Below are positions 12,247 to 49,668 of a stretch of DNA of 64,000 bases, piece by piece. Position 1 is the first letter of the stretch; every line of letters starts with the position of its first letter. Position numbers and translations under genes: made by a program. Source of the stretch: Desulfobacterales bacterium (lineage in GTDB: Bacteria; Desulfobacterota; Desulfobacteria; Desulfobacterales; C00003060); the NCBI GenBank assembly GCA_030616475.1, contig JAUWXF010000001.1:6845-70844 (forward strand), written 5' to 3'. Below the pieces are notes generated by a model, which saw only the letters and a program-made list of their open reading frames with translations, was not told the DNA's origin and ran no database searches.

Positions 12247-12346
12247 TGGAATAATGGAATGTTGGAATATTGGAATATTGGAAACAAAAGCCGCAATCAG
12301 TTGTTCCCGATGCTACATTCCGCATTCCGCATTCCGCATTCCATTA
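12247..12346. repeat. Stutter-hairpin element (GGAATATTGG arm / CATTCCG arm) at the 3' end of the hdrL-like gene
   Basis: The arms are TGGAATAATGGAATGTTGGAATATTGGAATATTGGAAAC and CATTCCGCATTCCGCATTCCGCATTCCATTA. In the minus (mRNA) sense the mismatches become G-U pairs. Confidence 0.8.
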
Positions 12347-15300
12347 TATACCCACCGCACTGAGCGCATCCATGATGCCGTCGAGCTCTGCAAAGATTTG
12401 CTTCTCTTTGAAATGTCTGACCTGCGCAGCGCCGCTCGGGCAGAATCCGGCACAGCTCCCGCATCCCTTACAAAGGGCTTCGTTTACTACCGAGACTCCT
12501 CTTCGTGCATCAAACTCAATGGCGGTGTAAGGACACAGCCCGATGCAGGTCTGGCAGCCAGCGCATATATTCGGGTCTATCCAGGAAATGGTAGACGGAA
12601 TCTCCACACGTCCCAGCGTAGCCATGGCAAGGGCCTTGGCGGCTGCCCCGGATGCCTGGGCAACCGCGTCCGGAATATCTTTGGGTCCCTGGCAGGCGCC
12701 GGCCAAAAATACTCCGTCCGTAGCAGTATTCAGCGGTCCCAGCTTGGGGTGTTCCTCCAGGAAAAACCCATCTGCTCCCTGGCTGACCCCAAAAATCCTG
12801 CCTACATCAAGAGCATCCTTGCGGGCCTGCATGGCAACGCACAGGACCGCCATATCCACAGGCACTCTTAAACGCTTGCCCAGAAGGGTGTCTTCGCTGA
12901 TCATGATGAGCTTGTCTTCCTCTTCCGGTGTGATGGCCTGGTCGGTGATCTCGGCCACTTTGCCTCTGATGAAGGTGGTACCTTCTTCCTGACACCTCAG
13001 GTAAAACTCCTCGTAGCCTTTGCCAAAGCAGCGCATGTCAATGTAAAAATCATAGACTGGTGTTTCGTGTCCGACCTTTTCCTTGATCAGGTGGGTGTAC
13101 TTGATTGCATACATGCAGCAGACCCGTGAGCAGTATTCGTGGTAGTGCACATCCCGGCTGCCGATGCAGTGGACAATGGCCACGCTCTCCGGGGGCTTCG
13201 TAAGTTCTCCATTTTCGTCTCTGATAAGGATCTTGCCGCCGGTGGGCCCTGTGGCATTGCTGAGGCGCTCGAACTCGAGGCTGGTATAGACATTGGGATA
13301 GGTGCCGTAGCCAAACTGTTTCATGGGGGTGGGATCCAGGATGTCGTATCCGGTCGTCAGGATGATGCTGCCAACCTTGACCTCCATCTCTTCTTCCTTC
13401 ATGGTGTGGTCAACTGCCTTTGCCTCGCAGGCCTGCACGCACTCCATACATTCGCAGCAGATGCCGCAGTTGAGGCAGCGGTTTGCCTCCCGTTGTGCAT
13501 CTTCTTCTGAAAAGCCAAGCTCCACCTCGTCAAAGGAAGACGCCGCTTCCTTGGCGTCCCGATGCTGCGCCTTTGCCCGGGCTTCTGTGGCAAGGCCCTC
13601 AGGGATTTCTTTCCAATCCTGGCCCGGGGGTTCCTGGGCTGCCAACTCCTCGGCATAGAGGTCAAGATCCTCGCCATTGACGTAGCGGTGAATAGCCTCG
13701 ACCGCCTTGTGACCGTCTGCCACTGCCTCGATCACCGTTGCCGGGCCGGTGACCGCATCGCCCGCAGCAAACACATGGGGAATGGACGTCTGCATGGTGT
13801 GGCGGTTCACCACCAGAGTGCTCCGGCCGGTAACCTCCAAAGCGGCGCCATCTATGGCCCAGCCTACGTCTGTCTGCTGGCCAATGGCGGGAATGACCCC
13901 ATCGCAGTCGATCACAAACTCGGAGCCCTCCACAGGCACTGGTCGCCGCCTGCCGCTCTCATCAGGTGGTCCGAGTTCGGTGCGCACGCACTCGATGCCA
14001 GTGGCCTTTCCATCCGCACCAAGGATGCGCACAGGCGCGGTCAGGTAATGAATCTTGACACCTTCGGCCAGGGCGCCCTCGATCTCTTCGGCGAAAGCGG
14101 GCATCTCTTTTCGGCTGCGTCGATAGACCATACTCACCTCCTCACAGCCAAGCCGCTTGGCAACCCGGGCAGCATCAACGGCCACATTTCCGCCGCCAAT
14201 GATTACCGCGCGCCTGCCGGGCCGCTCCCGGCTACCCAAATTCACCTCCCTGAGAAAATCGACTGCATTCACCACACCCTCGAACTCATCCTCACCAGGG
14301 ACATTCGATTTCGTCCCGAGGTGCGCGCCAATCGCGAGGAAAACTGCGTTGAAGCCCTGCTTTTTGAGATCATCCAGCGTGAAGTCCGTACCTAAACGTT
14401 TGCCGGTTTCAGTCTCGATTCCCAGTCGGAGAATGTAATTTATCTCCCGGTCCAATACCTCCGGGGGCAGCCGGTAATCCGGGATACCCACCCGGAGCAT
14501 ACCGCCCAGCACCGGAAGCGCTTCAAAGATTGTCACCTGGTAGCCCTTAAGACGGAGATAGTAGGCCACAGTCAGCCCGGCCGGACCCGAACCAACCACA
14601 GCCACCTTTTCTGTGCGGTCCTCGATTTCCGGCAAAGGGAGATCATCAAGATTCACCTGGTCAGAGGCAAAACGCTTCAAATCCCTGATGGCAATCGCTT
14701 CATCCACATCCATCCTTCGGCATTTAGATTCGCACGGATGCGGGCAGACCCGTCCCAGGACCCCGGGCAAAGGGAGGCGCTCCATGATCAACTGGATAGC
14801 CTCCTTGTATTTGCCCTGGCCAATGAGCTGCACATAGCCCTGAATATTGATGCCTGCCGGACAGGTGGTCACGCAGGGGGCCCGGTCTTTCTTATCAACA
14901 CAGAAGGTGATCGGCACTGCCTGCGGAAAGGATCTGTAGATGGCCTTTCTCATCGCCAGACCCTCATCCCATTTGCTGGGCATTTCAACAGGACAGACCT
15001 TGGCGCATTCACCGCAGCCCGTGCAGACACCTTCTGTTACATACCGGGGCTTCCTGCGAATCTTCACAGTGAAGTTGCCAATATATCCCGATACCTCCTT
15101 AACCTCGCTATACGAGAGCAGCTCGACATTCGGATCCTGTGCCACAGAAACCATCTTTGGCGTTCCGATACAGGCAGCGCAGTCAAGTGTGGGAAAGGTC
15201 TTATCGAACTGGAGCATATGCCCGCCGATGGTGGTTTCTCTTTCCACCAGGTATACCTTATGGCCAGAGGCGCCTATGTCGAGCGATGCCTGCATGCCAG

Positions 15301-15757
15301 CAATGCCGCCACCAACCACCATGATATCAGGATGGACACCCACCTCACGGGTGGCAAGACGCTCATGATAGTTGACCCGGTTGATGGCCGCTGCCACCAA
15401 TGTTTTTGCCTTCCTGGTCGCCTCGTCTTCATCCAGGGTTACCCAGGAAACCTGTTCGCGCACAGAAGCCATCTGGAAAAGGTAAGGGTTGAGCCCGGCC
15501 CGCTGACAGGCGCCCTGAAAGGTCTTTTCATGGAGTCTTGGCGAACAGGAGGCCACCACGACCCTGTCCAGGCCAAATTCCCTGATGTCGCTTTCAATCA
15601 TCTCCTGCCCTGGATCTGAACACATGAACTTGTAGTCTCGGGCCACCACCACATTCCTCAGAGCCCTGGCAAATTCCGCCACCTCTTCCACGCGGACCCT
15701 ATAGGCAATGTTGATGCCGCAATGGCAGATATAAAATCCGATTTTCGTAGCCATCAT
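12344..15757 (-). CDS. Large HdrA-like flavoprotein with an inserted NfnB/GltD-like NAD(P)H module (HdrL-type architecture)
   Basis: 1137-aa ORF. It reads [36 protein letters not shown]. The insertion carries CPHPCESKC, VVGSGPAGL, GGGNVAVD and DESGRRRP. The HdrA C-terminal part follows (CIGSRD and two terminal 4Fe-4S motifs). Confidence 0.9.
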   Translation of the reverse strand: MMATKIGFYICHCGINIAYRVRVEEVAEFARALRNVVVARDYKFMCSDPGQEMIESDIREFGLDRVVVASCSPRLHEKTFQGACQRAGLNPYLFQMASVREQVSWVTLDEDEATRKAKTLVAAAINRVNYHERLATREVGVHPDIMVVGGGIAGMQASLDIGASGHKVYLVERETTIGGHMLQFDKTFPTLDCAACIGTPKMVSVAQDPNVELLSYSEVKEVSGYIGNFTVKIRRKPRYVTEGVCTGCGECAKVCPVEMPSKWDEGLAMRKAIYRSFPQAVPITFCVDKKDRAPCVTTCPAGINIQGYVQLIGQGKYKEAIQLIMERLPLPGVLGRVCPHPCESKCRRMDVDEAIAIRDLKRFASDQVNLDDLPLPEIEDRTEKVAVVGSGPAGLTVAYYLRLKGYQVTIFEALPVLGGMLRVGIPDYRLPPEVLDREINYILRLGIETETGKRLGTDFTLDDLKKQGFNAVFLAIGAHLGTKSNVPGEDEFEGVVNAVDFLREVNLGSRERPGRRAVIIGGGNVAVDAARVAKRLGCEEVSMVYRRSRKEMPAFAEEIEGALAEGVKIHYLTAPVRILGADGKATGIECVRTELGPPDESGRRRPVPVEGSEFVIDCDGVIPAIGQQTDVGWAIDGAALEVTGRSTLVVNRHTMQTSIPHVFAAGDAVTGPATVIEAVADGHKAVEAIHRYVNGEDLDLYAEELAAQEPPGQDWKEIPEGLATEARAKAQHRDAKEAASSFDEVELGFSEEDAQREANRCLNCGICCECMECVQACEAKAVDHTMKEEEMEVKVGSIILTTGYDILDPTPMKQFGYGTYPNVYTSLEFERLSNATGPTGGKILIRDENGELTKPPESVAIVHCIGSRDVHYHEYCSRVCCMYAIKYTHLIKEKVGHETPVYDFYIDMRCFGKGYEEFYLRCQEEGTTFIRGKVAEITDQAITPEEEDKLIMISEDTLLGKRLRVPVDMAVLCVAMQARKDALDVGRIFGVSQGADGFFLEEHPKLGPLNTATDGVFLAGACQGPKDIPDAVAQASGAAAKALAMATLGRVEIPSTISWIDPNICAGCQTCIGLCPYTAIEFDARRGVSVVNEALCKGCGSCAGFCPSGAAQVRHFKEKQIFAELDGIMDALSAVGI

Positions 15758-29377: not shown

Positions 29378-31048
29378 CTACTTCTTCCCTCTCAGATATT
29401 TGTGAATCGATTCCGCTGCGGTTTTGCCACCTGCACAGGCCCGGACAGCAATATTTGCACCTGTGGCAGCATCGCCTGATGCAAACACCCCTTCCACATT
29501 GGTCTCAAAGGTCTTGGGGTTCACCTCAAAATTGAACTTTCTGCCGATCTTAAACCCGTGCTTTTCTTCAACCACACTGGTGTCCGTGACCTGGCCAATG
29601 GCGGCAAAGACGGTATCAGCGTCCATGACAAATTCCGAACCCTCAATCGGCACAGGTCTTCGCCTGCCGCTGGCGTCAGGTTCGCCAAGCTCCATTTTCA
29701 AACATTGCATCCCCACGGCCTTGCCATCCTTGACGACAACTTCCTGGGGGGCTACCAGAAAGTGAAACTTGATCCCCTCGTGCTCTGCCGCGTCTACTTC
29801 CCACGGGCTTGCCGGCATCTCCTTACGGGTTCGACGGTACAGCAGATTGACCTCGTCAAAGCCTACACGGAGACCAGTCCTTGCAACGTCCATGGCCACA
29901 TTGCCGCCGCCAACCACGATCGCTATACCCTTGTTGGGGACCTCATTGCCGAGGCCCGCGTCCCTCAAGAACTTAACACCCTCAAAGACGCCCTCGGCAT
30001 CCTCGTTCTTGACCCGCATGCTCATGCCCATATGGGCGCCAATGGCAACGAGAACCGCGTCATAGTCCTTTCGGATATCATCAAAGCTGATGTCCTTTCC
30101 AATCCGGACACCGCACTTGATCTCCACCCCGTGTTTTTCGACAAATTCAACATCCTTGGCCAGAATCGCCTTGGGAAGCCTGTATTCGGGAATCCCCACC
30201 AGAAACATCCCGCCGGGTTTGGGGAGGGCCTCAAAAACCGTTATGTTATTCTGATATCCGAGCAGTGCCAGGTGATAGGCACAGGTCAACCCGCTGGGGC
30301 CCCCTCCGATAATCGCGATCTTTTCAGGATAGGTCTCATCAGAAACGGTGATCGTGGGCTCAATGTCATTATAAACCTCGTGGTCGGCCACAAAACGCTT
30401 CAAGAAACAGATGCTGATCGGCTCATCCTTGTACCCGCGGTTGCACTCGAACTCGCACGGATGGGGGCACACACGCCCTATACTCAAGGGAAAGGGGAGC
30501 TTCTTTCGGATGGCGGCCAGAGACTCGGCATACTTCCCGTCTGCAATGTAGCCAACATATGTGCGAATATCTAAATTGATCGGACAGGTCCGCTGGCAAA
30601 CAGGCATATCCTCCTTGAACACATTGTAGTTGCCCGAACCTTTGTTGAAAAAATCAACAGCAGTGCGCCATTCAAGGGCCTCATTGTAGTCATCATACAT
30701 GTGGATCGGGCATACCTTGATACACTCCCCACAGTCATCACATTTCTCACGGTCAACCCGGGGTGTTCGACGGTGGATCTTGACCTTGTATTTGCCGTTT
30801 TCCCCGACCAGCGATCGCAGCTCAGCGCTATCTATGACCTGTATTGCCTTGTTTTCTTTTACTGCTGCCAAATCAGGCGCCGTGAAGAAATCACCATCAT
30901 TTATTATCCTGTCCTGCGAAATCCTTTCCCCGCCAATGCTGGGAAAGTCTTCCACCATAAAAACCTTATTGCCGGCATCGGCCTGGGCCAACGCCGCCCT
31001 AACGCCTGCAATACCGCCACCAATGATCAATACATTTTTCTCAGCCAC
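29378..31048 (-). CDS. HdrA-N-terminal-like + NfnB/GltD-like NAD(P)H:FAD module (first part of a split HdrL-type enzyme); GTG start
   Basis: 556-aa ORF with IIGGGIAGVRAAL, CDDCGECIKVCP, CPHPCEFEC, IIGGGPSGL, GGGNVAMD and DASGRRRP. Confidence 0.85.
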   Translation of the reverse strand: MAEKNVLIIGGGIAGVRAALAQADAGNKVFMVEDFPSIGGERISQDRIINDGDFFTAPDLAAVKENKAIQVIDSAELRSLVGENGKYKVKIHRRTPRVDREKCDDCGECIKVCPIHMYDDYNEALEWRTAVDFFNKGSGNYNVFKEDMPVCQRTCPINLDIRTYVGYIADGKYAESLAAIRKKLPFPLSIGRVCPHPCEFECNRGYKDEPISICFLKRFVADHEVYNDIEPTITVSDETYPEKIAIIGGGPSGLTCAYHLALLGYQNNITVFEALPKPGGMFLVGIPEYRLPKAILAKDVEFVEKHGVEIKCGVRIGKDISFDDIRKDYDAVLVAIGAHMGMSMRVKNEDAEGVFEGVKFLRDAGLGNEVPNKGIAIVVGGGNVAMDVARTGLRVGFDEVNLLYRRTRKEMPASPWEVDAAEHEGIKFHFLVAPQEVVVKDGKAVGMQCLKMELGEPDASGRRRPVPIEGSEFVMDADTVFAAIGQVTDTSVVEEKHGFKIGRKFNFEVNPKTFETNVEGVFASGDAATGANIAVRACAGGKTAAESIHKYLRGKK

Positions 31049-31497: not shown

Positions 31498-32280
31498 TTA
31501 GGGCGAAGCCCCTAACTTGTATAAAGGTGTATGATCCTTTACACTCTCCATCTCCACAAAGCCACGCCGCTTCAAACCGAGTATGTATTTCAAGGTCTCC
31601 GGAGGAGGAATTTCAAGCTCCTTCGCCAACTGCTTGACTGAGGCCGATTTGTTCTGCAAGGCTGCCAGAATGGAATGGGTGGCCATCTCGTCAATAACAA
31701 TGCCGCTTAAGGTGCGGTTTATCTCGTGCTCGGTAAAAACCTCATGATACTTGTTGCCTGTATCAACGAAGACAGGCTTTTTCCCAACGACCCACCGCAA
31801 TTTGGGCCCTGCAAGGGCCGTTTTGGCAATTTCAAGGTTCTCCTTGAGCTTTGGCAAGGGGACCTTGTCAGCCTCGCCTCCTAGTGGGCCGAGTTCTCTT
31901 ATCTCTGTGGAAAAATCGGTGACATGTTTCACAAAAAGCTCACTCTCCGCAGAAGAGAGGTTGCGAAATGACAACCGTCCCGGATTCATCCCTGCATAAG
32001 CGAGCATTTCCCCGGTCATGTTTATCTTGTGCCTGGCATTAAAATTCCCGCTCACATAATGACATTCGCCAAAAAGACAGCCGAGCACCAACAACCCATC
32101 AAGACCGTGAATAAAGGCATCAGCCATAATGACAGGGTCCATCCTGCCCGTGCACATAAGACGAATGACCCTGATATCCGTTGTGTATTGCATCCTGGAC
32201 ACGCCAGCGAGGTCACCTGCCGAGTAACCTCACCACGTGCAGCAAAAGGTCAATATCTTAGGGGTAAAATCCTCTGCCAT
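31498..32280 (-). CDS. MvhD-like domain (in-frame TGA, predicted Sec, at 32230..32232) fused to a C-terminal winged-helix-like domain
   Basis: ATG at 32278-32280 lies 8 nt after AGGAGG. My translation is [36 protein letters not shown].., continuing in frame into track ORF 31498..32202. The C-terminus ASVKQLAKELEIPPPETLKYILGLKRRGFVEM looks like a wHTH. Confidence 0.75.
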
Positions 32281-32296
32281 CAGGGATCCCTCCTTT

Positions 32297-32321
32297 TATA
32301 AAATCGCTCCGCGATTTTATA
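32297..32321. repeat. Family-5 mini-hairpin (TATAAAATCGC-TCC-GCGATTTTATA) directly 3' of the 32324 stop
   Basis: A perfect 11-bp stem. The same module occurs at 35785..35809, 46631..46655 and 53107..53129. Confidence 0.8.
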
Positions 32322-32323
32322 TG

Positions 32324-34000
32324 TTAAGCTGCCAGAAAACCGTGTATCTGGGCTTGTATTTGTTCGTCCGTAAACGAATTAATACCAAGGGCATGTCGGA
32401 AACAGGTCGCTGCACACACACCGCATCCCTTACATGCCACGGTAATAATGTTAGCCTTACGCCCTTCGTCAGTCTCCTCTATCTCCAGCGCACCGTAAGG
32501 ACAGAGCGCTACGCAGAGGCCACATCCGCGGCAGGCATCCCTGTCTACAAAAGTGGAGATAATCGGTTCGATCTTGATCTCGCCCTGTGCTAACGGAATA
32601 GAGGCACGGGATGCCGCTCCCAGGGCCTGCAAAATGCTTTCACGAACATCCTTGGGATAGTGGGCGCTGCCACAAAGGAAAATACCGTCTGTCGCACAAT
32701 CAAGCGGCCTTAGCTTCACGTGGGCCTCAAGGAAAAACTTGTTTTCATCCAGGGTAACCCTGAAGAGATTGGCAATCTTGACCGCGTCTTCACTGGCTAT
32801 CAGCGGCGTTGAGAGGACGACCATGTCCTGGGGTAGTTCAAGCTCTTTGCCCATAAGGTGATGGAAAACAGTCACCTTATCCTCTTCCACCACCGGCGGC
32901 CTTTCAGGATCATACTTGACAAACCGGACGCCAAGCTGTTTTGCCTTACGCAGCTCCTCTTCGTTCTCAACCCCGTACGCCATGATATCTCGATAGAGGA
33001 TATAAACCTTTGCGGCCGGATTCATCTGCTTGATCAGAATGGCATTCTTGATAGCTACCGCGCAGCATATACGAGAGCAATATTGTCTCTCCGCGCTTCT
33101 CGCCCCAACGCACTGGATCATCACCACATTGTTCCCATCGATCTTGCCGATCTTTAGTTTTTCCTCCAATTCCCACTGGGTAATAACCTTCTGGCCGTCA
33201 TATTGATACATACCTTCCGGCACAAGGTTGCCGGCCCCAGTGGCGATAATAACCACACCCAGCCTGACGTCTTTGGTGGTCCCGTTGGCGCTAAAGGTTA
33301 CATCAAACTTGCCGATAAATCCCTCCACCTTATCAATGGCGGCACCGGTATAAACATCGATATTGGGGTGGTCTTCAGCCTCTTTGATCTTCTTGCTTAT
33401 GACCTCAGAGGCATCCACATCCATTGGGGCCAGCCTGTTCAAAGATCTAAGCATGCCTCCCAGTTCTTTTTCCTTTTCCAGCAGTATCACCGGGAAACCC
33501 CGATTAGCCAGAGACGTGGCGGCTGTCAGACCGGCGATGCCGCCGCCAATAACAAGTGCCCTGACCTCCACCTCCGATGTAATGATCTCCTGAGGTTCAA
33601 GAAGTGCGGCCTTGGCTACACCCATGCGGATAAGATCCCTGGCCTTGGCCATAGCCGGTTCTCTTTCGTTCATGTGGACCCATGAGCATTGGTCTCTGAT
33701 ATTGACCATCTCAAACAGGTATGGGTTGAGCTCCGCCTCTGCACAGATTGACCGGAAAAGGGGCTCGTGGGTACGGGGTGAACAAGAGGCTACCACAACC
33801 CGATTAAGATTCTGCTCCTTGATCCCCTTCTTGATTTCATCGAGACCGACGTCTGAACAGGTATAAAGATTCCATTGGGTAAACACGACATTGGGCAAAG
33901 CAGAGGCATATTCATCCAGTGCCTCTACATCCAGATAGCCTGCGATATTGCTGCCGCACTTACAAACAAATACGCCTATTCTCAATTCTTCTTTTTCCAA
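32324..34000 (-). CDS. QmoB/HdrA-like flavoprotein (N-terminal HdrA-type Cys domain, FAD domain, C-terminal 2x[4Fe-4S])
   Basis: 558-aa ORF with [43 protein letters not shown] and CKGCGVCAATC. Confidence 0.9.
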   Translation of the reverse strand: MEKEELRIGVFVCKCGSNIAGYLDVEALDEYASALPNVVFTQWNLYTCSDVGLDEIKKGIKEQNLNRVVVASCSPRTHEPLFRSICAEAELNPYLFEMVNIRDQCSWVHMNEREPAMAKARDLIRMGVAKAALLEPQEIITSEVEVRALVIGGGIAGLTAATSLANRGFPVILLEKEKELGGMLRSLNRLAPMDVDASEVISKKIKEAEDHPNIDVYTGAAIDKVEGFIGKFDVTFSANGTTKDVRLGVVIIATGAGNLVPEGMYQYDGQKVITQWELEEKLKIGKIDGNNVVMIQCVGARSAERQYCSRICCAVAIKNAILIKQMNPAAKVYILYRDIMAYGVENEEELRKAKQLGVRFVKYDPERPPVVEEDKVTVFHHLMGKELELPQDMVVLSTPLIASEDAVKIANLFRVTLDENKFFLEAHVKLRPLDCATDGIFLCGSAHYPKDVRESILQALGAASRASIPLAQGEIKIEPIISTFVDRDACRGCGLCVALCPYGALEIEETDEGRKANIITVACKGCGVCAATCFRHALGINSFTDEQIQAQIHGFLAA

Positions 34001-34020
34001 TTTGATTCTCCGTGTGTTAG

Positions 34021-34132
34021 TTATTCGTTATTGGTTATTGGTTATTTGATTGTCGATTGTTGATTGTCGACTTTCGATTTGTTTTATTCAATCGTCAATC
34101 GTCAATCGTCAATCCAAAAATCATCAATCCAA
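34021..34132. repeat. Stutter-hairpin element (GATTGTCGATTG arm / CAATCGTCAATC arm)
   Basis: TTGGTTATTTGATTGTCGATTGTTGATTGTCGAC faces CAATCGTCAATCGTCAATCGTCAATCC. The same family occurs at 50900..50997, 59407..59618 and 62934..63008. Confidence 0.8.
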
Positions 34133-34174
34133 AGGTTCACGGTCTCATTCCGCATTCCGCACTCCGCATTCGAT

Positions 34175-35695
34175 TTAGGCTTTTCCCGCAACCGCCTCGG
34201 CGGCCCGGGAAGCAGCACTGCTGGCCTGGGCCACCGACTCTGGTATATCCATCGGCCCCTGGGCGCACCCGCACACAAAGATGCCGGGCACGGTAGTATC
34301 CAAAGGATTGAGCGGATCTGTCTTAAAAAACCTGTTATGGTCTAACTCCACGCCGACCATCTCAGCTATTTTTTCTATCCCCTTTGGAGCTTCACACGCC
34401 ACAGCCAGGATGGCCAGGTCAACTGTTAAGCTCTTTGGGGTCTGAGAGGTGGTCTCTTCATACCAGATAATGGGGTTTTCGTTTTCATCCTGGGTAATTT
34501 CAGCCACACGCCCACGAACGTAATTAAGACCGGTCTTTTCTGCCCCCCGTACCTTGTATTCTTCAAAACCCTTGCCAACCGTGCGCAGGTCCATGTTGAA
34601 GATATATGCATCGGTTCTGGCTTCATGGTCCTTGGCAATCATCGCCTCTTTAATGGAATGCATACAGCAATAACTTGAGCAGTACTTATTAAAGCGAAAG
34701 TCCCGGGAACCCACACACTGGATAAAGGCCAGCCTGGTGGCAACGTCAAACTTCTCCGCCTTGGCCTTCAGGGCCTCCAGTTTCTTGGTCGCCTCCTGTA
34801 CGCTCTCATACTGCTTTGCCCATTTTGCAAACTCATCCCCGTCCGATATGTTCCCTGCCGTGAATTCCTTATAGAAATCAGCAGATGACTTCTTGTGTTT
34901 CTTTTCGTATTTACCGAGGGTCTTTGTTGCCTTCTTCAGCTTCTTCTCCCCGCTGTGGATAAGCTCGTGATCTCTTAGATCCGAGAGCCTTTCCACGTGG
35001 CCTTCCGTGGGGCCGCTGGCGCTCAGCAGGCGTTCAAATTCGAGGGCATTGATCACATTTGTAATCCGCCCATAGCCGTATTCCGGCAACTTCGCGGCAT
35101 CAAAAAGGTCATACCCGACCGCCAAAACGATAGCGCCCACCTTTAACTCAAGGATTTTATCCTCCTGCTTGTAATCTATGGCTTTGGCCTGGCATATCTT
35201 TTCACAGACACCGCACTTTTTCCCCTTTTGAAAGGTCCGACAATGAACGGCATCTATACAGAAGGTAGAAGGGATACCCTGAGTATAGTACTTGTAGATC
35301 GCCTTTCGCTTCCCCAGCCCCATGTTAAATTCATCTGGTACCGTGGTTGGACATTTTTCGGCACATGCGCCGCACCCCGTACACAAATCTTCGTCAACGT
35401 AGCGGGCCTTTTTCCTCACGGTAACTGCAAAATCACCATTGCTGCCCGTTACTTTTTCCACAACGCTGTATGCCAAGAGATTGATCTTAGGATGCCGACC
35501 GACATCCTGTAACTTTGGCCCGATAATTCACATAGCACAGTCATTTGTGGGAAAGGTCTTGTCCAACTGGGCCATCTTGCCGCCGATGCAAGGGAGCTTT
35601 TCGACCATATGGACCTGAAGGCCCATATCCGCCAGATCAAGCGATGCCTGCATACCGGCTATCCCCCCGCCAATGACCAATATATCTTTGCTCAC
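34175..35695 (-). CDS. QmoA/HdrA-like flavoprotein with an in-frame TGA (predicted Sec) at 35528..35530
   Basis: GTG at 35693-35695 lies 9 nt after GGAGG. My translation is [48 protein letters not shown].., continuing in frame into track ORF 34175..35476. The hairpin AGGAUGUCGGUCGGCAUCCU (35489..35508) lies 19 nt 3' of the UGA. Confidence 0.85.
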
Positions 35696-35737
35696 GACAA
35701 CCTGCCTCCTTACCCGGTTTCCTGATACTTGCTCAAC

Positions 35738-35762
35738 AACTTGATAGTATAGGAATTTCCTT
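35738..35762 (-). promoter_or_regulatory. Motif B (AACTTGATAGTATAGGAATTTCCTT) in the leader of the Sec-hdrA/qmoA-like gene
   Basis: The same 25-mer with one substitution occurs at 45143..45167, upstream of the 41845..45126 gene. Confidence 0.4.
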
Positions 35763-35768
35763 TTTCAA

Positions 35769-35809
35769 GCGGCGTAGCCGCGTTATATAAAATCGCGTAG
35801 CGATTTTAT
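35769..35809. repeat. Family-5 double mini-hairpin (GCGGC-GTA-GCCGC + ATAAAATCGC-GTA-GCGATTTTAT) overlapping the 35806 stop
   Basis: GCGGCGTAGCCGCGTTATATAAAATCGCGTAGCGATTTTAT. Copies occur at 46615..46655 and, inverted, at 53107..53147. Confidence 0.8.
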
Positions 35810-36936
35810 CCACCGTTCATGGCAGAAACGACCATTTCAGTGAGATCTTTAATCTTGATATCAATACCCTCTATAAAACTTGCAGCACAACTAAAATGAA
35901 TATTACACTTGGGACAGGCAGTAATCAAAGTGTCCGCCCCGGTTGCCATCGACTCTTTCAATCTGTTGCCTTGAATCTCCTTTGAGCAGGTAGAACAGTT
36001 CATCCATCCGGTAGTCCCGCAGCAAACAGAATTTTCGCCGTTCCTTTCCATCTCCACAAAGGAGGCCGCAACCCCGTTAATGATGTCGCGCGGGCTCTCA
36101 TATATACCTGCCAGCCGCCCCAGCCGGCACGGATCCTGGTACGTCACCACGCCATTCGATTTTTCTAATGTTAATTCCCCGGCCTTTAACCTTTCCGCCA
36201 GAAAATCGTAGAAGTGAATAACCTCAAAATCGAGATCTCCGAAATACTTTGTATAGTAATTCTTGAAGATATAATATCCTTCAGGGCAATGGAAGATGAC
36301 CTTCTTACTCCCCGCCTCTTTGATTACTTCAATATTGGCCGCAGCCAACTTCTTGAAGGTTTCAACCTCGCCATTCCAGAGCATATCATGTCCGCAGCAT
36401 TTTTCGTCGTTGCTAACCACCGGCTCAATGCCCAATTTATTCAAAATCTTGATGACATTTCGTCCGATATCTAATGGCTGCGAAGGAAAATTTGCAAAAA
36501 TGACATTGAAATAGGGTAAGCAGCCCACAAAATAGAAATACTCCCCCTTGTCTGCAATACTGCCTGCCTCTTTTGCCCAGGTAATCCTGTCCTGCTTGAT
36601 TCCGGATGACTGTATCTCCATAATCGATTGGAACATACCACTGTGTGCAGGGCTGCCCTTATTGCCAAGCCTCAGTGCCTCCTCTCTGATCCCCCTGGCA
36701 AATTCCAGGTAGTCGATGTTAGCCGGGCACCTGTGGGTACACCGTGCACAGGTCAGACAGGACCATACATCGGGATCCGTCAGGAAATCTTCGGCCTTGC
36801 CCATAAGAGCCTTTTCAACCATCAGGCGGGGCGAGAATCCGGGTGAATACCGCGCCACCGGGCAGCTACCTGTACAAACGCCGCAGTCCAAACAGTAGTA
36901 AGCCTTGGTTTCATCTACTAATGCTTCAATGTTCAT
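35806..36936 (-). CDS. HdrD-like protein (HdrC-type 2x[4Fe-4S] + two CCG domains)
   Basis: 376-aa ORF with CLDCGVCTGSCP, CLTCARCTHRCP, EKCCGHD, SVCCGTTG and CPKCN. Confidence 0.9.
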   Translation of the reverse strand: MNIEALVDETKAYYCLDCGVCTGSCPVARYSPGFSPRLMVEKALMGKAEDFLTDPDVWSCLTCARCTHRCPANIDYLEFARGIREEALRLGNKGSPAHSGMFQSIMEIQSSGIKQDRITWAKEAGSIADKGEYFYFVGCLPYFNVIFANFPSQPLDIGRNVIKILNKLGIEPVVSNDEKCCGHDMLWNGEVETFKKLAAANIEVIKEAGSKKVIFHCPEGYYIFKNYYTKYFGDLDFEVIHFYDFLAERLKAGELTLEKSNGVVTYQDPCRLGRLAGIYESPRDIINGVAASFVEMERNGENSVCCGTTGWMNCSTCSKEIQGNRLKESMATGADTLITACPKCNIHFSCAASFIEGIDIKIKDLTEMVVSAMNGG

Positions 36937-37018
36937 TCTTTAGCCCCCATTGGTATTCTCTGGGCAATCGATTCATCTCATCCACCCAATACTCCATCAC
37001 TCCATTACTCCAATTCAA

Positions 37019-37438
37019 CTAAGCGGCTAGCCGCAGCGAAGACATCCCCAGATCCTTGATCTTCTGGGTAAAAGAGGTGACGACTTCGGCAAAACGGCCC
37101 CCTTCGGCAGACGAAACCCACTCCAGGGCCAGGCGCTCATTGTCGATGCCCAGCAGGGCCAGCAATTGACGCGTCATCTCAATCATCAGTGTTGCTTTCT
37201 TGTTACCTTCCAGGTAACGACAGTCGCCGATGTGTCAGCCACTCACCAGTACCCCATCGGCGCCCAGTTGAAACGCCTTCAGAATGAAATTAGGGTCGAC
37301 CCGGCCAGAGCACATCAGCCGGATCACTCGAATGTTGGGGGGATATTGCATGCGGCTGACTCCAGCCAGATCTGCCGCGCCATAGGCGCACCAGTTGCAG
37401 CAAAAAGCAATAATTGTTGGCTCGTACTCTGCACTCAT
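37019..37438 (-). CDS. mvhD: MvhD-like protein with an in-frame TGA (predicted Sec) at 37235..37237
   Basis: Track ORF 37235..37438 ends ..GVLVSG. My continuation is [74 protein letters not shown], with the stop at 37019. The hairpin GUUACCUGGAAGGUAAC (37202..37218) lies 16 nt 3' of the UGA. Confidence 0.85.
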
Positions 37439-37532
37439 GATCTCTCTTCCTTCATATTGACCGAGTGTAAATCACGGCTGTTGGCAATGAGAAAATCCGT
37501 GTCCGTCTGCTGCGTATTTAGTTTTGGGGAAA

Positions 37533-37604
37533 AGGTGTCAGGCTTCGGGTTTCAGGTGTCAGGATTGAGAAACTTAAAGAGCTGAAACCTGAACACTGAC
37601 ACTT
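37533..37604. repeat. Stutter-hairpin element of the TCAGGTGTCAGG family
   Basis: GGTGTCAGGCTTCGGGTTTCAGGTGTCAGG faces CTGAAACCTGAACACTGACAC. Confidence 0.75.
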
Positions 37605-37630
37605 GGCCATTGAACTCAATAACCAACAAT

Positions 37631-37668
37631 CTTGATTTACACCCATATTCTTGATTTACACCCATATT
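37631..37668. repeat. Perfect 19-nt tandem direct repeat (CTTGATTTACACCCATATT x2) just 3' of the 37672 stop
   Basis: Copies lie at 37631..37649 and 37650..37668. An inverted partial copy GTGTAAATCA lies at 37465..37474. Confidence 0.9.
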
Positions 37669-37671
37669 AAT

Positions 37672-40600
37672 CTACCCGCCGAGGCCGGCCTCGACCATGG
37701 CAAGCACTTGGCTGTCCATAAAATGACGAAGGCCTGCGGCCCCGGTAGGACAGGCCACCGAGCAAGCACCGCAGCCCTTGCACAACGCCCCCTCAACATA
37801 GGCTGCTCTCCTGCCCTCTTCGCGTTCCGCAACAGCAATGGCACCAAAAGGGCAGGCATCTTCACACTTGCCGCAACCGCGGCACAAAATCTCATTTACG
37901 TGGGATATAACGCCTTCGATCGTGAGTTCATCCTTGGAGAGTACTACCGACGCCCTCGAAGCTGTTGCTTTGGCTTGCGCGATGCTTTCATCAATCGGCT
38001 TCGGGTAATGGGCCATGCCAGCCAGGAAAATCCCTTCTGTAGCGGACTCTACCGGCCTGAGTTTGGCATGGGCCTCCATGAAGAACCCTTCCTCGTTGAG
38101 GGCCAGCTTATACATCTGGGCCAGGGGTGTGTTATCTCTGGGTACAATGGCACACGCGAGGACCACCAGGCCAGGTTTAATCTCAATATCCCGACCGAGT
38201 ATAGGATCTTTGACCGCCACTGAGATCCCGTCTCCGTTTTTCTTAACATCAGGTTTTTGCTCCAGATCGTACCTGATAAAAATGACACCGCGGCTTCTCG
38301 CCTCTCTATATAGCTCCTCTCGCTGGCCATAGGTGCGAATGTCCCGGTAAAGGATATAGATATCCATTTCCGGGTTCATTTCCTTTAGTTCCAAAGCTGA
38401 ATGGATTGTATGGGTGCAGCAGAGCTTGGAGCAGTAAGGCCTTTCCGGTTCCCGTGATCCCACACACTGGATAAATACGGCGGTTTTGGCCTTTGTTATC
38501 CGTTCTTCTTTACTGGCAACGGCCGAATCGAGGTCCAGGTGGGTCAAGACCCTGTCATCTTCGCCATAAAGGTATTCACTCGGCTTGTATTCCTCGGCAC
38601 CGACCGCCACGATCACAGCCCCATGTTTCAGGGTAACATCTGTGCCGTTCTGTGAGACGGTGGTTTCAAAGTTTCCAACAAATCCGGTGGCCTCTTTGAT
38701 ATTCGATCCTTTGTACACATCAATCAAGGGATGATCCTCCACCTGGCGCACCATCTCTTCAACGCCATCTGCAATCTTCTCTCCCCTCCACGTGCTGACG
38801 AGCTTAAGGGCGTTTCCACCCAGTTCATTTGCTTGCTCCACAAGATATGTGTGGAAGCCCTGATCGGCGAGACCAAGAGCCGCTGCCATACCGGAGACAC
38901 CGCCTCCTACCACAAGGGCCTTGTGGTCCACCGAGATGGTAGGCTGTGGTAATGACTGTATCAATCGAGCCCTGGCAACCGCCATGCGCACCAGATCCTT
39001 TGCCTTCTCGGTAGCCTTCTCCCCTTCCTTGAAGTGGACCCAGGAGCACTGATTGCGAATATTGGCCATTTCGAACAGATACTGGTTCAGACCTGCATCC
39101 TTCAGGGTCTCCTGAAACATGGGCTCATGGGTCCTGGGTGAGCAGGAAGCCACCACCACCCGGTTCAACCCCTCCTGTTTGATCACCTCTGTTATCTTCT
39201 CCTGAGTATCCTGCGAACAGGTGAAGAGGTTATGCTCAGCGTAGACCACCGCGGGGAGTGTTCGGACGTATTCGGTCACCGCGGGCACGTCCACGATTCC
39301 CCCGATGTTGATACCACAGTTGCACACGAAGACTCCGACCCGTGGTTCTTCAGAGGATACGTCTTTCTCTTCAGGATAGCTCTTTTCCTTAACCAGCGTG
39401 CCCCGGGCATCCGACAGAATTTCTTCTGCCCCGCAGGCAGCACCACTCGCTTCCATAACCGAATAGGGAATATCCTTGGGTTCCAGGAAGGTTCCGCAGA
39501 CGTAAACCCCCTTTCTGGATGTCTCTACAGGAGTAAATGTTGCTGTCTCAACAAAATGGTCCTTGTCCAGGTCGATATCGAGACGTTTGGCCAGCTCCTT
39601 GAGCTCTTTGGGAGTTTCAAGTCCTACGGAAAGTATCACCATATCGAATTTCTCGACCTGGATGTTACCGCTTTCATCCGCATACCGAAGGATCAGGTCA
39701 TTGGTATCAGGGTCCTCTTCAATGGAATGGATCCGGGAGCGAACGTACCTGACCCCCACCTCTTCCCTGGCACGGTTATAATATTTCTCGAAGTCCTTAC
39801 CATAGGTCCTCATGTCCATGAAAAAGATAGCCGTGTCGAGTGGATGCTCGGAATGTTCCTTGGCAATAACCGCCTCTTTAGTGGCATACATACAACAGAC
39901 CGATGAACAATAGGGATTGTCACATTGGTTCATATCCCTGGAACCGATGCACTGGAGCCAGGCAATCTTTTCAGGTTCCTTCAGGTCCGAGGGCCGGTGG
40001 ACGTGCCCCAGATAGGGGCCTGTGGCGCTCAAAATGCGCTCAAATTCCATACTGGTAACCACATTAGGAAATTCGGCATACTTGTAAACATCCAGGTTGC
40101 CCGGATTGAATACATCATTGCCCAGGGCCAGGATTACTGCTCCTGCTTCCAGCTCCGTCCTTCTCGGTTCATCATCATAGCGAATTGCTTCAGCCAGACA
40201 GACCTTTTCACATAGCCCGCAGCCGATGCACAGGTCCCTATCAATGGTATAGGCCAGGGGTACGGCTTGAGCGTACTTGATGTAAATGGCGGCCCTGAAA
40301 TCAAAACCGCGGTTGAATTCATTCCCGGCGGTCACAGGGCAGGCCTGGGCGCACACCCCACAGCCGGTACATCTAGCAGGATCAATGTGCCGGGGAACAT
40401 TCTTTAGTGTTGCCTTGAAATGTCCGGGTTCGCCTTCAAGGGATTCAACCTGGGTGTTCGTAATGATATTGATGTTAAGATGCCGGCCGACCTCGACCAG
40501 TTTGGGCGAGATAAGTCACATGGTGCAATCATTTGTTGGAAAGGTCTTATCCAACTGTGCCATTAATCCGCCGATGGTCGGCGATCGATCAACCAGATGC

Positions 40601-40695
40601 ACGTAATAACCTGAGTCTGCCAGATCGAGGGAAGCCTGCATCCCTGCGATCCCGCCCCCGATGACAATCACGCTACCTATCTTCTCATTTGTCAT
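37672..40695 (-). CDS. Double HdrA-like flavoprotein (QmoA-like + QmoB-like fusion, 1007 aa) with an in-frame TGA (predicted Sec) at 40516..40518
   Basis: ATG at 40693-40695. A codon-by-codon check gave [52 protein letters not shown].., in frame with track ORF 37672..40356. The hairpin GAGGUCGGCCGGCAUCUU (40477..40494) lies 21 nt 3' of the UGA. Confidence 0.9.
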
Positions 40696-40724
40696 GACAA
40701 TCCCTCAATATCGCTTTTTAAAAC

Positions 40725-40941
40725 AAATCCGAAATCCGTATATCGTACTGTTCTCAAGGCGTGAGCCGCAAATCCGAAACAAATCCGACACGAAGTGAAG
40801 CCTGCGCTCAATTCAAATGTCTAAATGTTCAAAACTCTATTTACGCTGAGTGCTCTCCTTGAGCTATTCGGGTTTGTTTTGAATTTTGTATTTTGGTCAT
40901 TTGATATTGTTTCGAATTTCGTGCTTCGAATTTCGAATTTT
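40725..40941. repeat. Roughly 220-bp composite repeat element, copy 1
   Basis: AAATCCGAAATCCGTATATCGTACTGTTCTCAAGGCGTGAGCCGCAAATCCGAAACAAATCCGACACGAAGTGAAGCCTGCGCTCAATTCAAAT ... TTTTGGTCATTTGATATTGTTTCGAATTTCGTGCTTCGAATTTCG. It is largely alignable with 61989..62206, and its ends are imperfect inverted repeats. Confidence 0.85.
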
Positions 40942-41013
40942 CCCTGTTGTTTCTGTGAAATTTAATTTCTGAGAATCTTTAGCATATTGGAACGTTATTT
41001 TGGAGTCCTCATA

Positions 41014-41775
41014 CTATGCTGCCAGAGCGACGAACTTTGGGGTAGTCTCGTCATACCCCTTTATCTCCGCCTGGCCGGAATTCTTCAAATGACTCAACCA
41101 GAAAGAAACCCTTGGCTTCGGCAATCCGATCCTTCCGGAAATCTCCCGCACTAACTGGGGACTTTCCTTGATTGCCTCCAAGACCAGGGCCTTTTCATAC
41201 TCCTCTTCAATGGCCTGGTGAAGGAGTCTTGTGTACTCTTCCTCGTTCAGTTTTTCATGATAGACGTTCTCACGCTCGGTGAGCTGCCTGCTCATTCCCA
41301 TCAGCCATCGGATGCGAGGCGAGGTCAGGGTTTGTTCAACAGCAGCCAGCGGAAGCTTAAATTGGTCCAGATCAAAAGGCCCCAATTCCCGAGTCAAGTC
41401 ACTAAATTGCGTCACATAATCTGCGAACAACTGCCCTTCAGCCGAACTGACCCAACGAAGCTGCATCCGATTTCGTCCAATGCCGGAGAGATCGAGCAGA
41501 TATTCCACCACATGCATCCTTTTAGAAGCATAGACATTACCATCCAGGTAATGACAGTCTCCAAGGTGTCATCCGGACACAAAGACGCTATCAAACCCGC
41601 TCTTTAAACCGTTCACTATATAAAGGGGATCAACCCTGCCGGAACACATCACCCGAATTACACGGATCGCAGGGGGATATTGGAGGCGGGATACACCCGC
41701 TAAATCTGCACCTGCATAGGCGCACCAGTTGCACAAAAATGCGAGGATTTTCGGTTCAAATGGTTCACTCATCAC
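41014..41775 (-). CDS. MvhD-like domain (in-frame TGA, predicted Sec, at 41569..41571) fused to a C-terminal winged-helix-like domain
   Basis: Track ORFs 41569..41775 and 41014..41517 share one frame: ..SVFVSG-TGA-HLGDCHYLDGNVYASKRMHVVEYLL... The hairpin CAUUACCUGGAUGGUAAUG (41535..41553) lies 15 nt 3' of the UGA. The C-terminus SPQLVREISGRIGLPKPRVSFWLSHLKNSGQAEI looks like a wHTH. Confidence 0.85.
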
Positions 41776-41844: not shown

Positions 41845-44800
41845 TTACCCCCTTGCACCGCCTGCCTGAATCGCTGCAAATATCTGCCGATCGCGGAAAT
41901 GCTGCATATCAATAGCCTTTTGCGGGCAAGCCGCGGCACAGCTCCCACAACCCTTACATACTGCTGAGATATTTTCGGCTCTATACCCTTTCCCGGGTAT
42001 CTTCTCAAGGCGTATAGCGCCAAAAGGACACGATGTCTCACACAAGCCGCATCCAATACAGAGATCCTGGTCAACGACCGATACAATAGGTTCTATTTCC
42101 ACATATTTTTGCGCCAGGATGGTAGCAGCTCGAGCTGCTGCCGCCTCAGCCTGGGCGATGCTTTCCTCAATCGGTTTGGGGTAATGGGCCATGCCGCACA
42201 CAAAAATACCATCCGTGGCAAAGTCCACAGGCCGGAGCTTCATGTGAGCCTCGAGGAAGAAATTGTCCTGGCTGATGGACACCTTGAAGATCTGGGCCAA
42301 TTCCTCAATCCCACGGGTATAGATGGCTGTGGCCAGGGTGATAAAGTCCGGCTTGAGGGTGATGGGCCGCTGGAGCACGTGATCCATTACCGTAACCTCC
42401 AGGGTGCCTCCCTCGGTTTCCCTGACGACCGGTTTATTCTCCAGGTCATAGCGAATAAAAATCACACCGAGGGCCCGGGCTTCTTTGTACAGATCTTCAC
42501 GTTCCCCGTAGGTTCGCATGTCCCGGTAGAGGATGTAGACATCTATGTCCGGGTTGCGTTTCTTTAGCTCCACCGCCTTCTGAACCGAGAAGGTGCAGCA
42601 AATCTTGCTGCAGTGAGGGCGCTCCGGTTCCCGGGAGCCGACACATTGAATGAAGACTGCACTGCCGGCGTTTTTGACCTGATCACTCTCCCATGCCTTG
42701 TCAAGCTCGTGCCACCGGAAGACCCGGTCATTCTTGCCGTAAAGGTACTCATCCGGCTTGATAGAATGGGCGCCGGTTGCCAGCACTGTTACGCCGTGCT
42801 CCACCTCGCGAACGTCCCCTCCACCATTCAGAGTGATGGCTGTCTTGAAGTTGCCGATGAAACCGGAAGCCTCCTTGACCTTAGCGTTGAGGTGCACCTC
42901 GATATTGTCGTGCCCGGTTACGTCATCTACGAGCTTGCTCACAAACTCCGGGACACCTTCGCCCTTCCACGTTTTCTTTAGCTTCAGGGCATGGCCACCC
43001 AGGTGTTCCTTCTCCTCGACAATGTGCACCTTGAATCCTTGCTGGGCCAGATTGAGGCCGCACACCATCCCGGCCACACCACCGCCCACCACCAAAGCCG
43101 CCGGGGTAACCGGCGCCGAGGGCACGGGCAGGGGCTCGATGAGTGAAGCCCGGGAAACTGCCATCCGCACCAGGTCCTTGGCCTTTTCAGTGGCAGCATC
43201 AGGATCACTCGAATGCACCCAGGAGCACTGGTCGCGGATATTGGCCTGCTCGAAAAGGTACTTGTTCAGGCTGCTGTTGCGCAAGGTTTCCTGGAAGAGC
43301 GGCTCATGGGTGCGCGGCGAGCAGGCGGATACTACCACCCGGTTGAGGTTCTGCTCCTTGATTACTTCAACCAATTGCTCAAGGGCATCCTGGGAACAGG
43401 AGAAGAGGTTCTCCTGAACATAGGTCACGTTCGGAAGCGTTTTGGCGTATTCGGCCACTTCAGGAACCCGCACCACACCGCCTATGTTCACCCCGCAATT
43501 GCAAACAAAAACACCGATACGGGCTGGCTCAGCACTGATATCCCGCTCCTCGGGGAAAGTCTTTTCCTTTACCAGGGTGTGACGCGCCCCGGCAAGCCTG
43601 CTCCCTGCCGCACCCGCGGCAGCCGAGGCCTCCATCACCGAATAAGGAATATCTTTGGGGCCCTGCAAGGCTCCGCAGGCATAGATCCCGGGAACAGACG
43701 TATTCACAGGGGCAAAGCTGGCGGTGCGGGCAAATCTGTAATGATCCAGATCGATTCCCAGCTTCTCTGCCAGCTCTGCTGCACCAGGAGGGGACTCAAG
43801 CCCGACAGAGAGCACCACCATGTCAAACTCTTCTGTTTCGGCCCTGCCGTCTTCCGTAGCGTAGCGAATCTTCAGGTTATCTGAACCGGCCACAGGGTCA
43901 ATAGTGTGCACCCGGCAGCGTATGAAACGGACACCACTTTCTTTTGCCCGGTTGTAATACTGATCGAATTCCTTCCCATAAGTGCGCATGTCCATGAAAA
44001 AGATGGCCGTCTCCAGCCCGTCTTTGGCATGCTCCCTGGCAATGACCGCCTCCTTGATTGCGTACATGCAACAGACACCTGAACAGTAAGCATTGTCACA
44101 GCGGTTGATGTCTCGGGAGCCCACGCACTGGAGCCAGGCAATCTTTCTGGGGGCATGGGACGCTGCCTCTTTCTCTTTTAGCGCGGCGAGCTTGCCGTCC
44201 GAGGCGGCAAACTTTTCAGCCAGCGAGGCCCAGCTTTTATAATCCTCGTCCTCGGCTCCCGCTTTGAACTGCTCGACTACCTCGGCAGTGGGCTTGCCGT
44301 GCTTTTTTTCCAGTTGTTTCAACTGGCGGTCCAGTTTTTTCAGCCCTTTCTCCGCCTTAACAATCTCTTCCCGGAGGGCCAGGTCAGAAGGTCTCTCCAC
44401 GTGACCGGCAGTAGGACCGCCTGCACTCAAGAGTCGTTCAAACTCCATGGAGGTGATCACATTGGGTTGACTGGCATAAGCGTAAGCCTCAAACTGGCGG
44501 GGATCGAAGGTCTTAAAGCCGGTGGCCAGGATAACGGAACCGACTTCCAGGTTCAGAAGCTGCTCTTTTTGCTCGAAGTCAATCGCATCGGAGGGACAGA
44601 GCTTGGCACAGACCTCGCACTTTTTTCCGTCGCCCAAAAGGCGGCACTTCTCAGCGTCGATAGCATAGCCCGACGGAATCGCCTGGGGATAGAGCTTGTA
44701 AATTGCCTTGCGCTTGGCAAGGCCTTCATTGAATTTGTCCACCACCACCTTCGGGCACTTTTCCGCACAAGTGCCACAGGCGGTGCATTTGTCCAGATCG

Positions 44801-45126
44801 ACGTACCGGGGTTTCTCCCGAACCGTTACCTGGAAATGGCCTTCTTCACCGGTGACGCTTTCCAGCTCCGCAGAGGTAATCAGATTGATATTGAGATGCC
44901 GGCCGACCTCGACCAGCTTGGGGGAGATGATTCACATGGCGCATTCGTTGGTGGGGAAGGTCTTATCAAGCTGTGCCATGCCCCCACCGATAGCGGAGTT
45001 TTTTTCCAGAAGATGAACATAATAGCCTGAATTGGCCAGATCCAGGGAAGCCTGCATCCCGGCTATGCCACCGCCCACGACTAAAACCGACCCGACGGCC
45101 CCTTTGCCAGGTTCTTTGTTTTTCAT
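41845..45126 (-). CDS. Double HdrA-like flavoprotein (QmoA-like + QmoB-like fusion, 1093 aa) with an in-frame TGA (predicted Sec) at 44932..44934
   Basis: Track ORFs 44932..45126 (..[11 protein letters not shown]) and 41845..44748 share one frame. The bridging translation is [65 protein letters not shown]. The hairpin GAGGUCGGCCGGCAUCUC (44893..44910) lies 21 nt 3' of the UGA. Confidence 0.9.
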
Positions 45127-47934: not shown

Positions 47935-47953
47935 TCGAAACTCTGGAGGCACT

Positions 47954-49652: not shown

Positions 49653-49668
49653 AATAGGGAGAAGAGTA

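Follow-up and report, generated by a model that had tools for sequence, protein, structure and literature searches.

MvhD-type genes in the window

MvhD, a small adaptor protein with a [2Fe-2S] cluster, serves to dock an electron-input enzyme onto the bifurcating flavoprotein HdrA. Within a 64-kb window of a Desulfobacterales genome (contig JAUWXF010000001.1; the window is the whole stretch of DNA that was analysed, and all coordinates are counted from its first letter) we found four MvhD-type genes, three of which are crossed by an in-frame UGA codon that we read as selenocysteine (Sec), and all four lie directly 3' of an HdrA or HdrL gene on the same strand (Table 1). The explanation that we favour, at a probability of roughly 0.85, is that Sec occupies a cluster-ligand position (67) in MvhD1 and MvhD2 and a non-ligand position (16) in MvhD3, each of these proteins being partnered by an HdrA with a CxxU motif.

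The translations agreed with the initial annotation of these genes. MvhD1 and MvhD2 have Sec in place of the first Cys of GCHxGDCHY, MvhD3 keeps that Cys in an unchanged GCLFGECHY motif and has Sec for the second Cys of CNWC (FCCTW-U-GY; MAEDFTPKILTFCCTW-UGA-GYSAGDLAGVSR...), and MvhD4 has Cys throughout. A strong Shine-Dalgarno sequence (AAGGAGG) stands 5' of the MvhD3 start, the ATG at 32280, and MvhD1 probably starts at the ATG at 41772. The PF02662 (FlpD/MvhD) profile is matched from end to end (1-123 of 123) in both long copies, with scores of 142.7 and 161.4 bits (gathering cut-off, 22.3); alignments of MvhD4 and MvhD3 to four MvhD chains of solved structure (5odc_D, 7bkb_F, 8rvu_F and 9sw2_D) contain no gaps. 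Residue numbers were transferred from M. marburgensis MvhD (9sw2_D), which aligns without gaps and whose Cys16 corresponds to U17 of the window and Cys67 to U68/U69. Five conserved Cys positions (13, 16, 42, 67 and 72) were found in all four copies, with UGA substituting at position 16 in MvhD3 and at position 67 in MvhD1 and MvhD2. Judged from sequence, the four copies belong to the MvhD/VhuD/FlpD adaptor family PF02662 and are predicted to bind a [2Fe-2S] cluster.

MvhD1 and MvhD3 are 36% identical over 254 residues, and their homology runs over the full length, including a C-terminal extension of ~120 residues. An AlphaFold2 model of P0012, a Cys homologue 64% identical to MvhD3, passes from an MvhD fold through a helical linker to a winged helix-turn-helix (HTH), with a mean predicted local distance difference test score of 83.8. 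When this model was submitted to Foldseek, MvhD chains were recovered with template-modelling scores of 0.82-0.87 (target-normalised), together with HlyU/ArsR and Z-alpha winged helices; HTH Pfam matches are present among homologues too. On the model of this homologue, MvhD3 is predicted to consist of an MvhD domain, a helical linker and a winged HTH.

Decoding of the in-frame UGA codons

The UGA at 32230 was followed through a scan for the CTW-U site in which each species was represented by one genome. It gave 80 loci in metagenome-assembled genomes (MAGs) of Desulfobacterales, Syntrophobacterales and Desulfatiglandaceae, the closest being 96% identical; the motif was located in 78 of them. 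The initial annotation had asked for the conservation of this UGA in related genomes, and the codon proved to be an in-frame TGA in 77 of the 78 loci and TGC in the remaining one, embedded in a sequence conserved on both sides (FCCTWUGY[SA]AAD[LF]AGVSR). Database homologues of MvhD3 are nearly all called as proteins of ~215-240 residues that begin right after the UGA (MQY... or MAGVSR...), and three full-length Cys homologues (P0012, P0013 and P0016) carry FCCNWCSY. It is a modestly new point that the CTW-U type forms a long subfamily, widespread and under tight conservation, whose members almost always come truncated from gene callers.

Two features of this Sec16 subfamily (L001-L080) were seen in passing: the ligand Cys is invariably followed by Thr (CTWU), as opposed to Asn in Cys-type MvhD (CNWC), and it is directly preceded by an extra Cys in 76 of the 78 CTW-U loci. 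This extra Cys of FCCTWU, four residues from Sec, is a possible selenenylsulfide partner.

Counts for the G-U-H codon (UGAs at 37235 and 41569) come from a single metagenome scan, the flanks of the genome-scan loci being too short to reach these paralogues. The codon is an in-frame TGA in 23 of 75 metagenome loci and encodes Cys in the other 52; its recurrence, like that of the 32230 UGA, goes well beyond chance. Among database homologues of MvhD2, 108 show Cys at the Sec residue and eleven close ones show W, G or L, which is best explained by translation of TGA under another genetic code (4 or 25). Several of these calls, P0121-P0123 included, also read through the terminal TGA stop into extra sequence, and because this holds for the W-containing calls the code would be a mis-assigned one and not a real one. 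The homologues in which the Sec codon was called W, G or L are P0121-P0127, P0130, P0152, P0162, P0175 and P0198; metagenome pipelines apparently gave short contigs code 4 or 25, whereas the MvhD3 homologues were instead truncated at the N-terminus.

If the codon at 32230 were a true stop, the gene proper would be a 234-residue open reading frame (ORF) from the GTG at 32202; this ORF (31498-32202) does exist, and most database homologues are called at just such a length from MQY... or MAGVSR.... Yet the 16 codons 5' of the UGA are kept in frame in 77 genomes and include the ligand Cys of the CxxC motif, needed for cluster formation, the ATG at 32280 has its strong Shine-Dalgarno sequence, full-length Cys homologues align through the UGA site, and a Sec-specific hairpin follows it, so that we regard a true stop as highly improbable. 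A genuine stop with a separate downstream start, as shown by orthologues, had been named beforehand as one outcome that would overturn the reading of Sec at two ligand positions, and it runs counter to the conserved upstream codons and the full-length Cys homologues. Just as improbable is that the UGAs are assembly errors or marks of pseudogenes, or that the host decodes UGA as Trp or Gly. Some JGI/ENA calls do give W or G at the homologous codon, but dozens of independent assemblies share that codon and show no further disruption of the frame, the W-containing calls (P0121-P0123) likewise read through their terminal TGA into unrelated-looking sequence, and in the orders to which the homologues belong, Desulfobacterales and Syntrophobacterales, the standard bacterial code is in use. 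With in-frame conservation in 77 of 78 loci, the upstream codons with their ligand Cys and the Shine-Dalgarno sequence all arguing against a stop, the 32230 UGA reads as a selenocysteine codon, and both G-U-H UGAs (37235 and 41569) are likewise predicted to be Sec codons.

Predicted SECIS hairpins

Each of the three UGAs is followed by a predicted bacterial selenocysteine insertion sequence (SECIS) hairpin that is in frame within the coding sequence, has a G in its apical loop, is specific to the Sec-type genes and starts 19-26 nucleotides after the U. Because the CTW-U hairpin is invariant and RNAalifold found no covariation in it, support for the hairpins was sought in the contrast of codon usage between Sec-type and Cys-type sequences. 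For the CTW-U type the consensus structure (RNAalifold, 79 sequences) is CUGG-N5-CCAG at +26 to +38 with the loop NGUNU. Across 62 distinct Sec-type sequences the peptide AGVSR, which overlies it, is spelled by no more than 3 codon strings and 4.84 of 5 pairs form, whereas 64 Cys-type sequences with the same peptide spell it in widely differing ways and form 2.88 of 5. At the G-U-H site, C-AUUACC-UGGAN-GGUAAU-G was present at +19 to +37 in all 23 UGA-type metagenome loci and in both window genes; in the UGA-type loci the codons are frozen as CAT TAC CTG GAN GGT AAT and 6.83 of 7 pairs form on average, whereas the 52 Cys-type loci use varied codons and form 3.4 of 7. The MvhD2 hairpin holds the sole compensatory change (G-C against A-U elsewhere) in an otherwise invariant helix.

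The initial annotation had assigned the 32230 site a different hairpin, at 32211-32229, which abuts the UGA. We discarded it as the SECIS: it was seen in the window and a few relatives and is not conserved across the family, the conserved element being the one at 32195-32207. In the window this region can form a 9-bp hairpin (32209-32231, minus strand; GAGGUUACU-CGGCA-GGUGACCUC) of about -16 kcal/mol, which takes in the GA of the UGA codon and might conceivably serve, for instance, as a lower SECIS stem; this longer hairpin also forms in the closest relative and a few Syntrophobacterales loci, though not family-wide.

Position of the replaced cysteines relative to the cluster

A [2Fe-2S] cluster requires four ligands. 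M. hungatei MvhD, the cluster carrier in 7BKB, has just five Cys across its aligned residues 3-136 of 140, and cryo-electron microscopy (cryo-EM) places MvhD Cys16 between the cluster and the flavin adenine dinucleotide (FAD) of HdrA, as an additional conserved cysteine that is not a ligand (PMC13580544). Since only five Cys are available and the Cys16 equivalent is not a ligand, the four others, the Cys67 equivalent among them, must be. The Sec of the G-U-H motif is thus, by elimination, probably a [2Fe-2S] ligand, and the Sec of CTW-U, from the published text and the alignment, would sit beside the cluster as a non-ligand; our statements on ligand status, as those on equivalence with VhuD and BamF below, combine published text with the logic of alignment. 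The same cryo-EM study reports that two MvhD residues flanking Cys67, His68 and Asp71, come close to the ligand held by the cysteine pair of HdrA (PMC13580544). According to a preprint on class II benzoyl-CoA reductase (BCRII), Sec19 of BamF takes the place of a cysteine close to the MvhD cluster, and a selenenylsulfide is suggested there as an intermediate (bioRxiv 10.64898/2026.04.10.717634).

The initial annotation had taken all the replaced cysteines for [2Fe-2S] ligands and had concluded that the locus encodes Se-ligated clusters in two different geometries. For the first half of this, the G-U-H position stands, by the elimination given above, and the CxxU position does not; the second falls with it, for the structural literature does not count the second Cys of CNWC among the ligands. 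What can be said for two coordination geometries is that both Sec positions are an invariant Cys in all Cys-type homologues examined and that both lie at the C-terminal edge of the central sheet, near the cluster. However, a cluster needs four ligands and there are five conserved Cys positions, and Cys16 is the one described as 'additional', between cluster and FAD (PMC13580544), which makes ligation at both positions unlikely. Sec at ligand position 67 and non-ligand position 16 would leave the locus with one probable type of Se-ligated cluster, in two genes, and one cluster beside a free selenol, in the third.

Several points weigh against this assignment of the two Sec positions and of the codons behind it. 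The Se-Fe ligation proposed for position 67 follows from elimination, and the cryo-EM paper on M. maripaludis VhuD (PMC13518236) is silent on the Sec residues of that protein. The hairpins are nearly invariant, so that covariation is minimal and amounts to one compensatory pair, and no Rfam SECIS family was matched in the window. Neither selA, selB, selC or selD nor a tRNA-Sec lies within the 64 kb, a stretch without any tRNA gene; the Sec machinery is assumed on account of the seven in-frame UGA sites in the window.

HdrA partners and the proposed role of selenium

The three HdrA-like genes 5' of the Sec-MvhD genes contain in-frame UGAs of their own, which fall within FPTN[DE]C[AT]M-U-[IL]I and are followed by candidate hairpins (GCUGGUCGAGGUCGGCCGGC and similar). 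In the split HdrA 5' of MvhD3 the motif, FPTNDCAM-U (UGA 35528-35530), lies in the N-terminal half. FPTN[DE]C[AT]M-U is the canonical HdrA CxxU Sec site, and the CxxU pair is the equivalent of HdrA Cys202/Cys205 and of M. maripaludis HdrA Sec197. Where related loci had the motif within the flank covered, it was CxxU in all (8 of 8).

Taken together, these results suggest that the window, from a Desulfobacteria-type genome, encodes four HdrA/HdrL-MvhD electron-bifurcation modules, three of which would be selenoprotein modules in which UGA is recoded to Sec through a bacterial SECIS hairpin. With Sec at the Cys67 ligand position, MvhD1 and MvhD2 may each hold a [2Fe-2S] cluster with one selenolate ligand. 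MvhD3 would keep its four ligand cysteines and present Sec, at the Cys16 position, to the redox-active CxxC pair and the FAD of HdrA, where it probably acts as a selenol/selenenylsulfide relay. The physiological partners of the MvhDs are putative. As each Sec-MvhD is paired with a CxxU HdrA, selenium would stand at the [2Fe-2S]-to-FAD hand-off in every Sec module. We further propose, more tentatively and at somewhat less than even odds, that the paralogues have divided the two Sec residues of VhuD between them, a selenolate-ligated cluster (Sec67) and a selenol relay (Sec16) being alternative tunings of this hand-off.

Conserved extra sites have been implicated in the hand-off, namely MvhD Cys16, HdrA Cys202/Cys205 and the His68/Asp71 loop by Cys67. 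The window locus puts selenium exactly at these sites, which supports thiol/selenol chemistry at the MvhD-HdrA interface, and for each position it offers natural variants with one Sec that can be compared. That all the selenium of the Sec modules lies at this interface is a modestly new point. If the proposal is true, the separate contribution of each Sec to flavin-based electron bifurcation becomes testable, and if Sec67 truly binds iron, these easily recognised bacterial genes offer a tractable system for a native Se-ligated Fe-S cluster. There is also a consequence for annotation: standard callers truncate the CTW-U subfamily at the UGA, so that the ligand-bearing N-terminus is lost, and this truncation, or the calling of UGA as Trp or Gly, makes the annotation of MvhD-type adaptors in MAGs systematically wrong. 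Apart from the interface and the annotation, the locus is what one would expect from a selenoprotein family already on record.

Comparison with known selenoproteins

The MvhD-type selenoprotein family has been known since the 1990s. Akin to the window MvhDs, archaeal VhuD, the Sec-containing delta subunit of the F420-non-reducing hydrogenase (Methanococcales and Methanopyrus; 9SFI chain K), belongs to PF02662 and is a [2Fe-2S] adaptor to HdrA. A 2026 review gives FrhD/MvhD/VhuD a CxxU motif and two Sec, and Mariotti et al. place the two VhuD Sec positions 50 codons apart (PMC13188914, PMC4989117). From this published motif and spacing, Sec positions 16 and 67 of the window appear to be the two classical VhuD sites. 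The arrangement differs, for VhuD carries both Sec in one polypeptide, served by one archaeal SECIS in the 3' untranslated region, whereas the window paralogues have one Sec each with its own in-frame bacterial SECIS, and two of the three window Sec-MvhDs, unlike VhuD, bear the winged-HTH extension of ~120 residues. That single-Sec bacterial paralogues use either VhuD position is modestly new. A protein search started from M. thermolithotrophicus MvhD returned Cys isoforms (VhcD/MvhD) only and no U-containing VhuD. The methanogen MvhDs of known structure (5ODC, 7BKB, 8RVU and 9SW2) are 47-52% identical to the window proteins over ungapped alignments in which the five Cys correspond one to one; in contrast to the Sec-containing and long copies of the window, they are all-Cys and exist in the short form only.

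The bacterial protein to compare with MvhD3 is BamF, from the BCRII of Geobacter metallireducens, an MvhD homologue that exceeds methanogen MvhD by more than 100 residues, has a winged HTH and carries Sec19 at a non-ligand cysteine beside the [2Fe-2S] cluster (bioRxiv 10.64898/2026.04.10.717634). MvhD3 resembles it in its length, in Sec17 within CxxU and in the winged HTH modelled for its Cys homologue, the equivalence with Sec19 being drawn from the texts of the two papers and not from an alignment. Its setting is different: a GltD-like NAD(P)H oxidoreductase is next to it and its HdrA is split, whereas BamE is a fused double HdrA. Among the window ORFs scanned against Pfam there was no gene for BamB/BamC (tungsten AOR-type) or for BamGHI (NuoEFG/HydBC-like). 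MvhD3 is surrounded instead by genes for a split HdrA, an HdrBC fusion, a GltD-like and a CCG protein, and with no bamBCDEFGHI cluster emerging from these ORFs we rejected its identification as BamF on gene context and call it BamF-like.

Two deltaproteobacterial sulfate reducers likewise have many hdrA/hdrL-mvhD loci with both Sec and all-Cys paralogues. Desulfobacterium autotrophicum HRM2 is described with four Sec-MvhD genes (mvhD1, 2, 3 and 5) beside Sec and Cys paralogues of HdrA/HdrL (PMC2702500), and Desulfococcus multivorans with one Sec-MvhD gene (PMC5109826). The passages searched in these papers do not specify the replaced cysteine and draw no link to cluster ligation (PMC2702500, PMC5109826). 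The window MvhDs are fresh members of an established selenoprotein family, and both of their Sec positions were already known from VhuD and BamF.

Gene neighbourhood

Table 1. MvhD-type genes of the window, their predicted SECIS hairpins and adjoining genes.
Feature	Coordinates	Strand	Details and basis
MvhD1 (long)	41014..41775	-	SG-U-HLGDCHY, UGA 41569-41571, CNWC intact; translation, PF02662 E 1e-47
MvhD2 (short, 139 aa)	37019..37438	-	Sec68 in SG-U-HIGDCRY, UGA 37235-37237, CNWC intact; translation
MvhD3 (long, 260 aa)	31498..32280	-	Sec17, UGA 32230-32232; translation, PF02662 E 7e-42
MvhD4 (140 aa)	11733..12155	-	Cys at every position; translation, PDB sequence matches E 6e-48
Predicted SECIS hairpin for 41569 UGA	41535..41553	-	CAUUACC-UGGAU-GGUAAUG
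Predicted SECIS hairpin for 37235 UGA	37202..37218	-	GUUACC-UGGAA-GGUAAC
Predicted SECIS core hairpin for 32230 UGA	32195..32207	-	CUGG-CGUGU-CCAG, +26 to +38 from U of UGA, GU in loop
HdrA-like flavoprotein, 5' of MvhD1	41845..45126	-	FPTNECAM-U, UGA 44932-44934; read-through translation and start-codon analysis
HdrA-like flavoprotein, 5' of MvhD2	37672..40695	-	FPTNDCTM-U, UGA 40516-40518
Split HdrA-like pair, 5' of MvhD3	32324..35695	-	N-half 34175-35695, C-half 32324-34000
HdrBC-fusion/BamD-like (4Fe-4S dicluster and two CCG)	35806..36936	-	PF02754 E 1.3e-25, PF13183
GltD/NfnB-like NAD(P)H-FAD oxidoreductase, right after MvhD3	29378..31048	-	PF07992, PF14691
HdrL-type HdrA/GltD fusion (1137 aa), 5' of MvhD4	12344..15757	-	FPTLDCAAC, all-Cys; Pfam and motif

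The HdrBC fusion sits between MvhD2 and the split HdrA. The two ORFs of the latter, of 506 and 558 residues, are separated by a gap of ~170 nucleotides; the other two HdrA genes are single ORFs of ~1000-1090 residues. The GltD/NfnB-like oxidoreductase is the likely electron-input partner of MvhD3, whose module also includes a CCG protein with an in-frame UGA of its own. This HdrD/GlpC-like protein (4Fe-4S dicluster and CCG; 27092-28438, minus strand) is split by the UGA at 27707-27709 (LLYPE-U-GHAYFATRLGF) and is probably the known selenoprotein described from operons with hdrA and frhD as 'Fe-S oxidoreductase (GlpC)-like'.

The all-Cys module (10567-15757, minus strand) comprises the HdrL-type fusion, MvhD4 and an FrhB/FdhB-like protein; being of a different type, it probably provides no selenium-free backup for the Sec modules. 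Beyond it, at 7067-10543 (minus strand), lies an HdrA-like flavoprotein of 1158 residues with a receiver domain (PF00072, residues 192-298, E 1e-32) between its ferredoxin and FAD domains, an unusual fusion that places a signalling domain inside an electron-bifurcation subunit.

On the other side of the Sec modules, the plus strand carries the genes of an Rnf complex (46669-50898), followed by a GltD-like oxidoreductase (51020-53110) and by the small and large subunits of a [NiFe] hydrogenase (53564-56117) with an all-Cys C-terminal DPCLAC; HypE (56956-57978) and HypF (59612-61921) are encoded on the minus strand.

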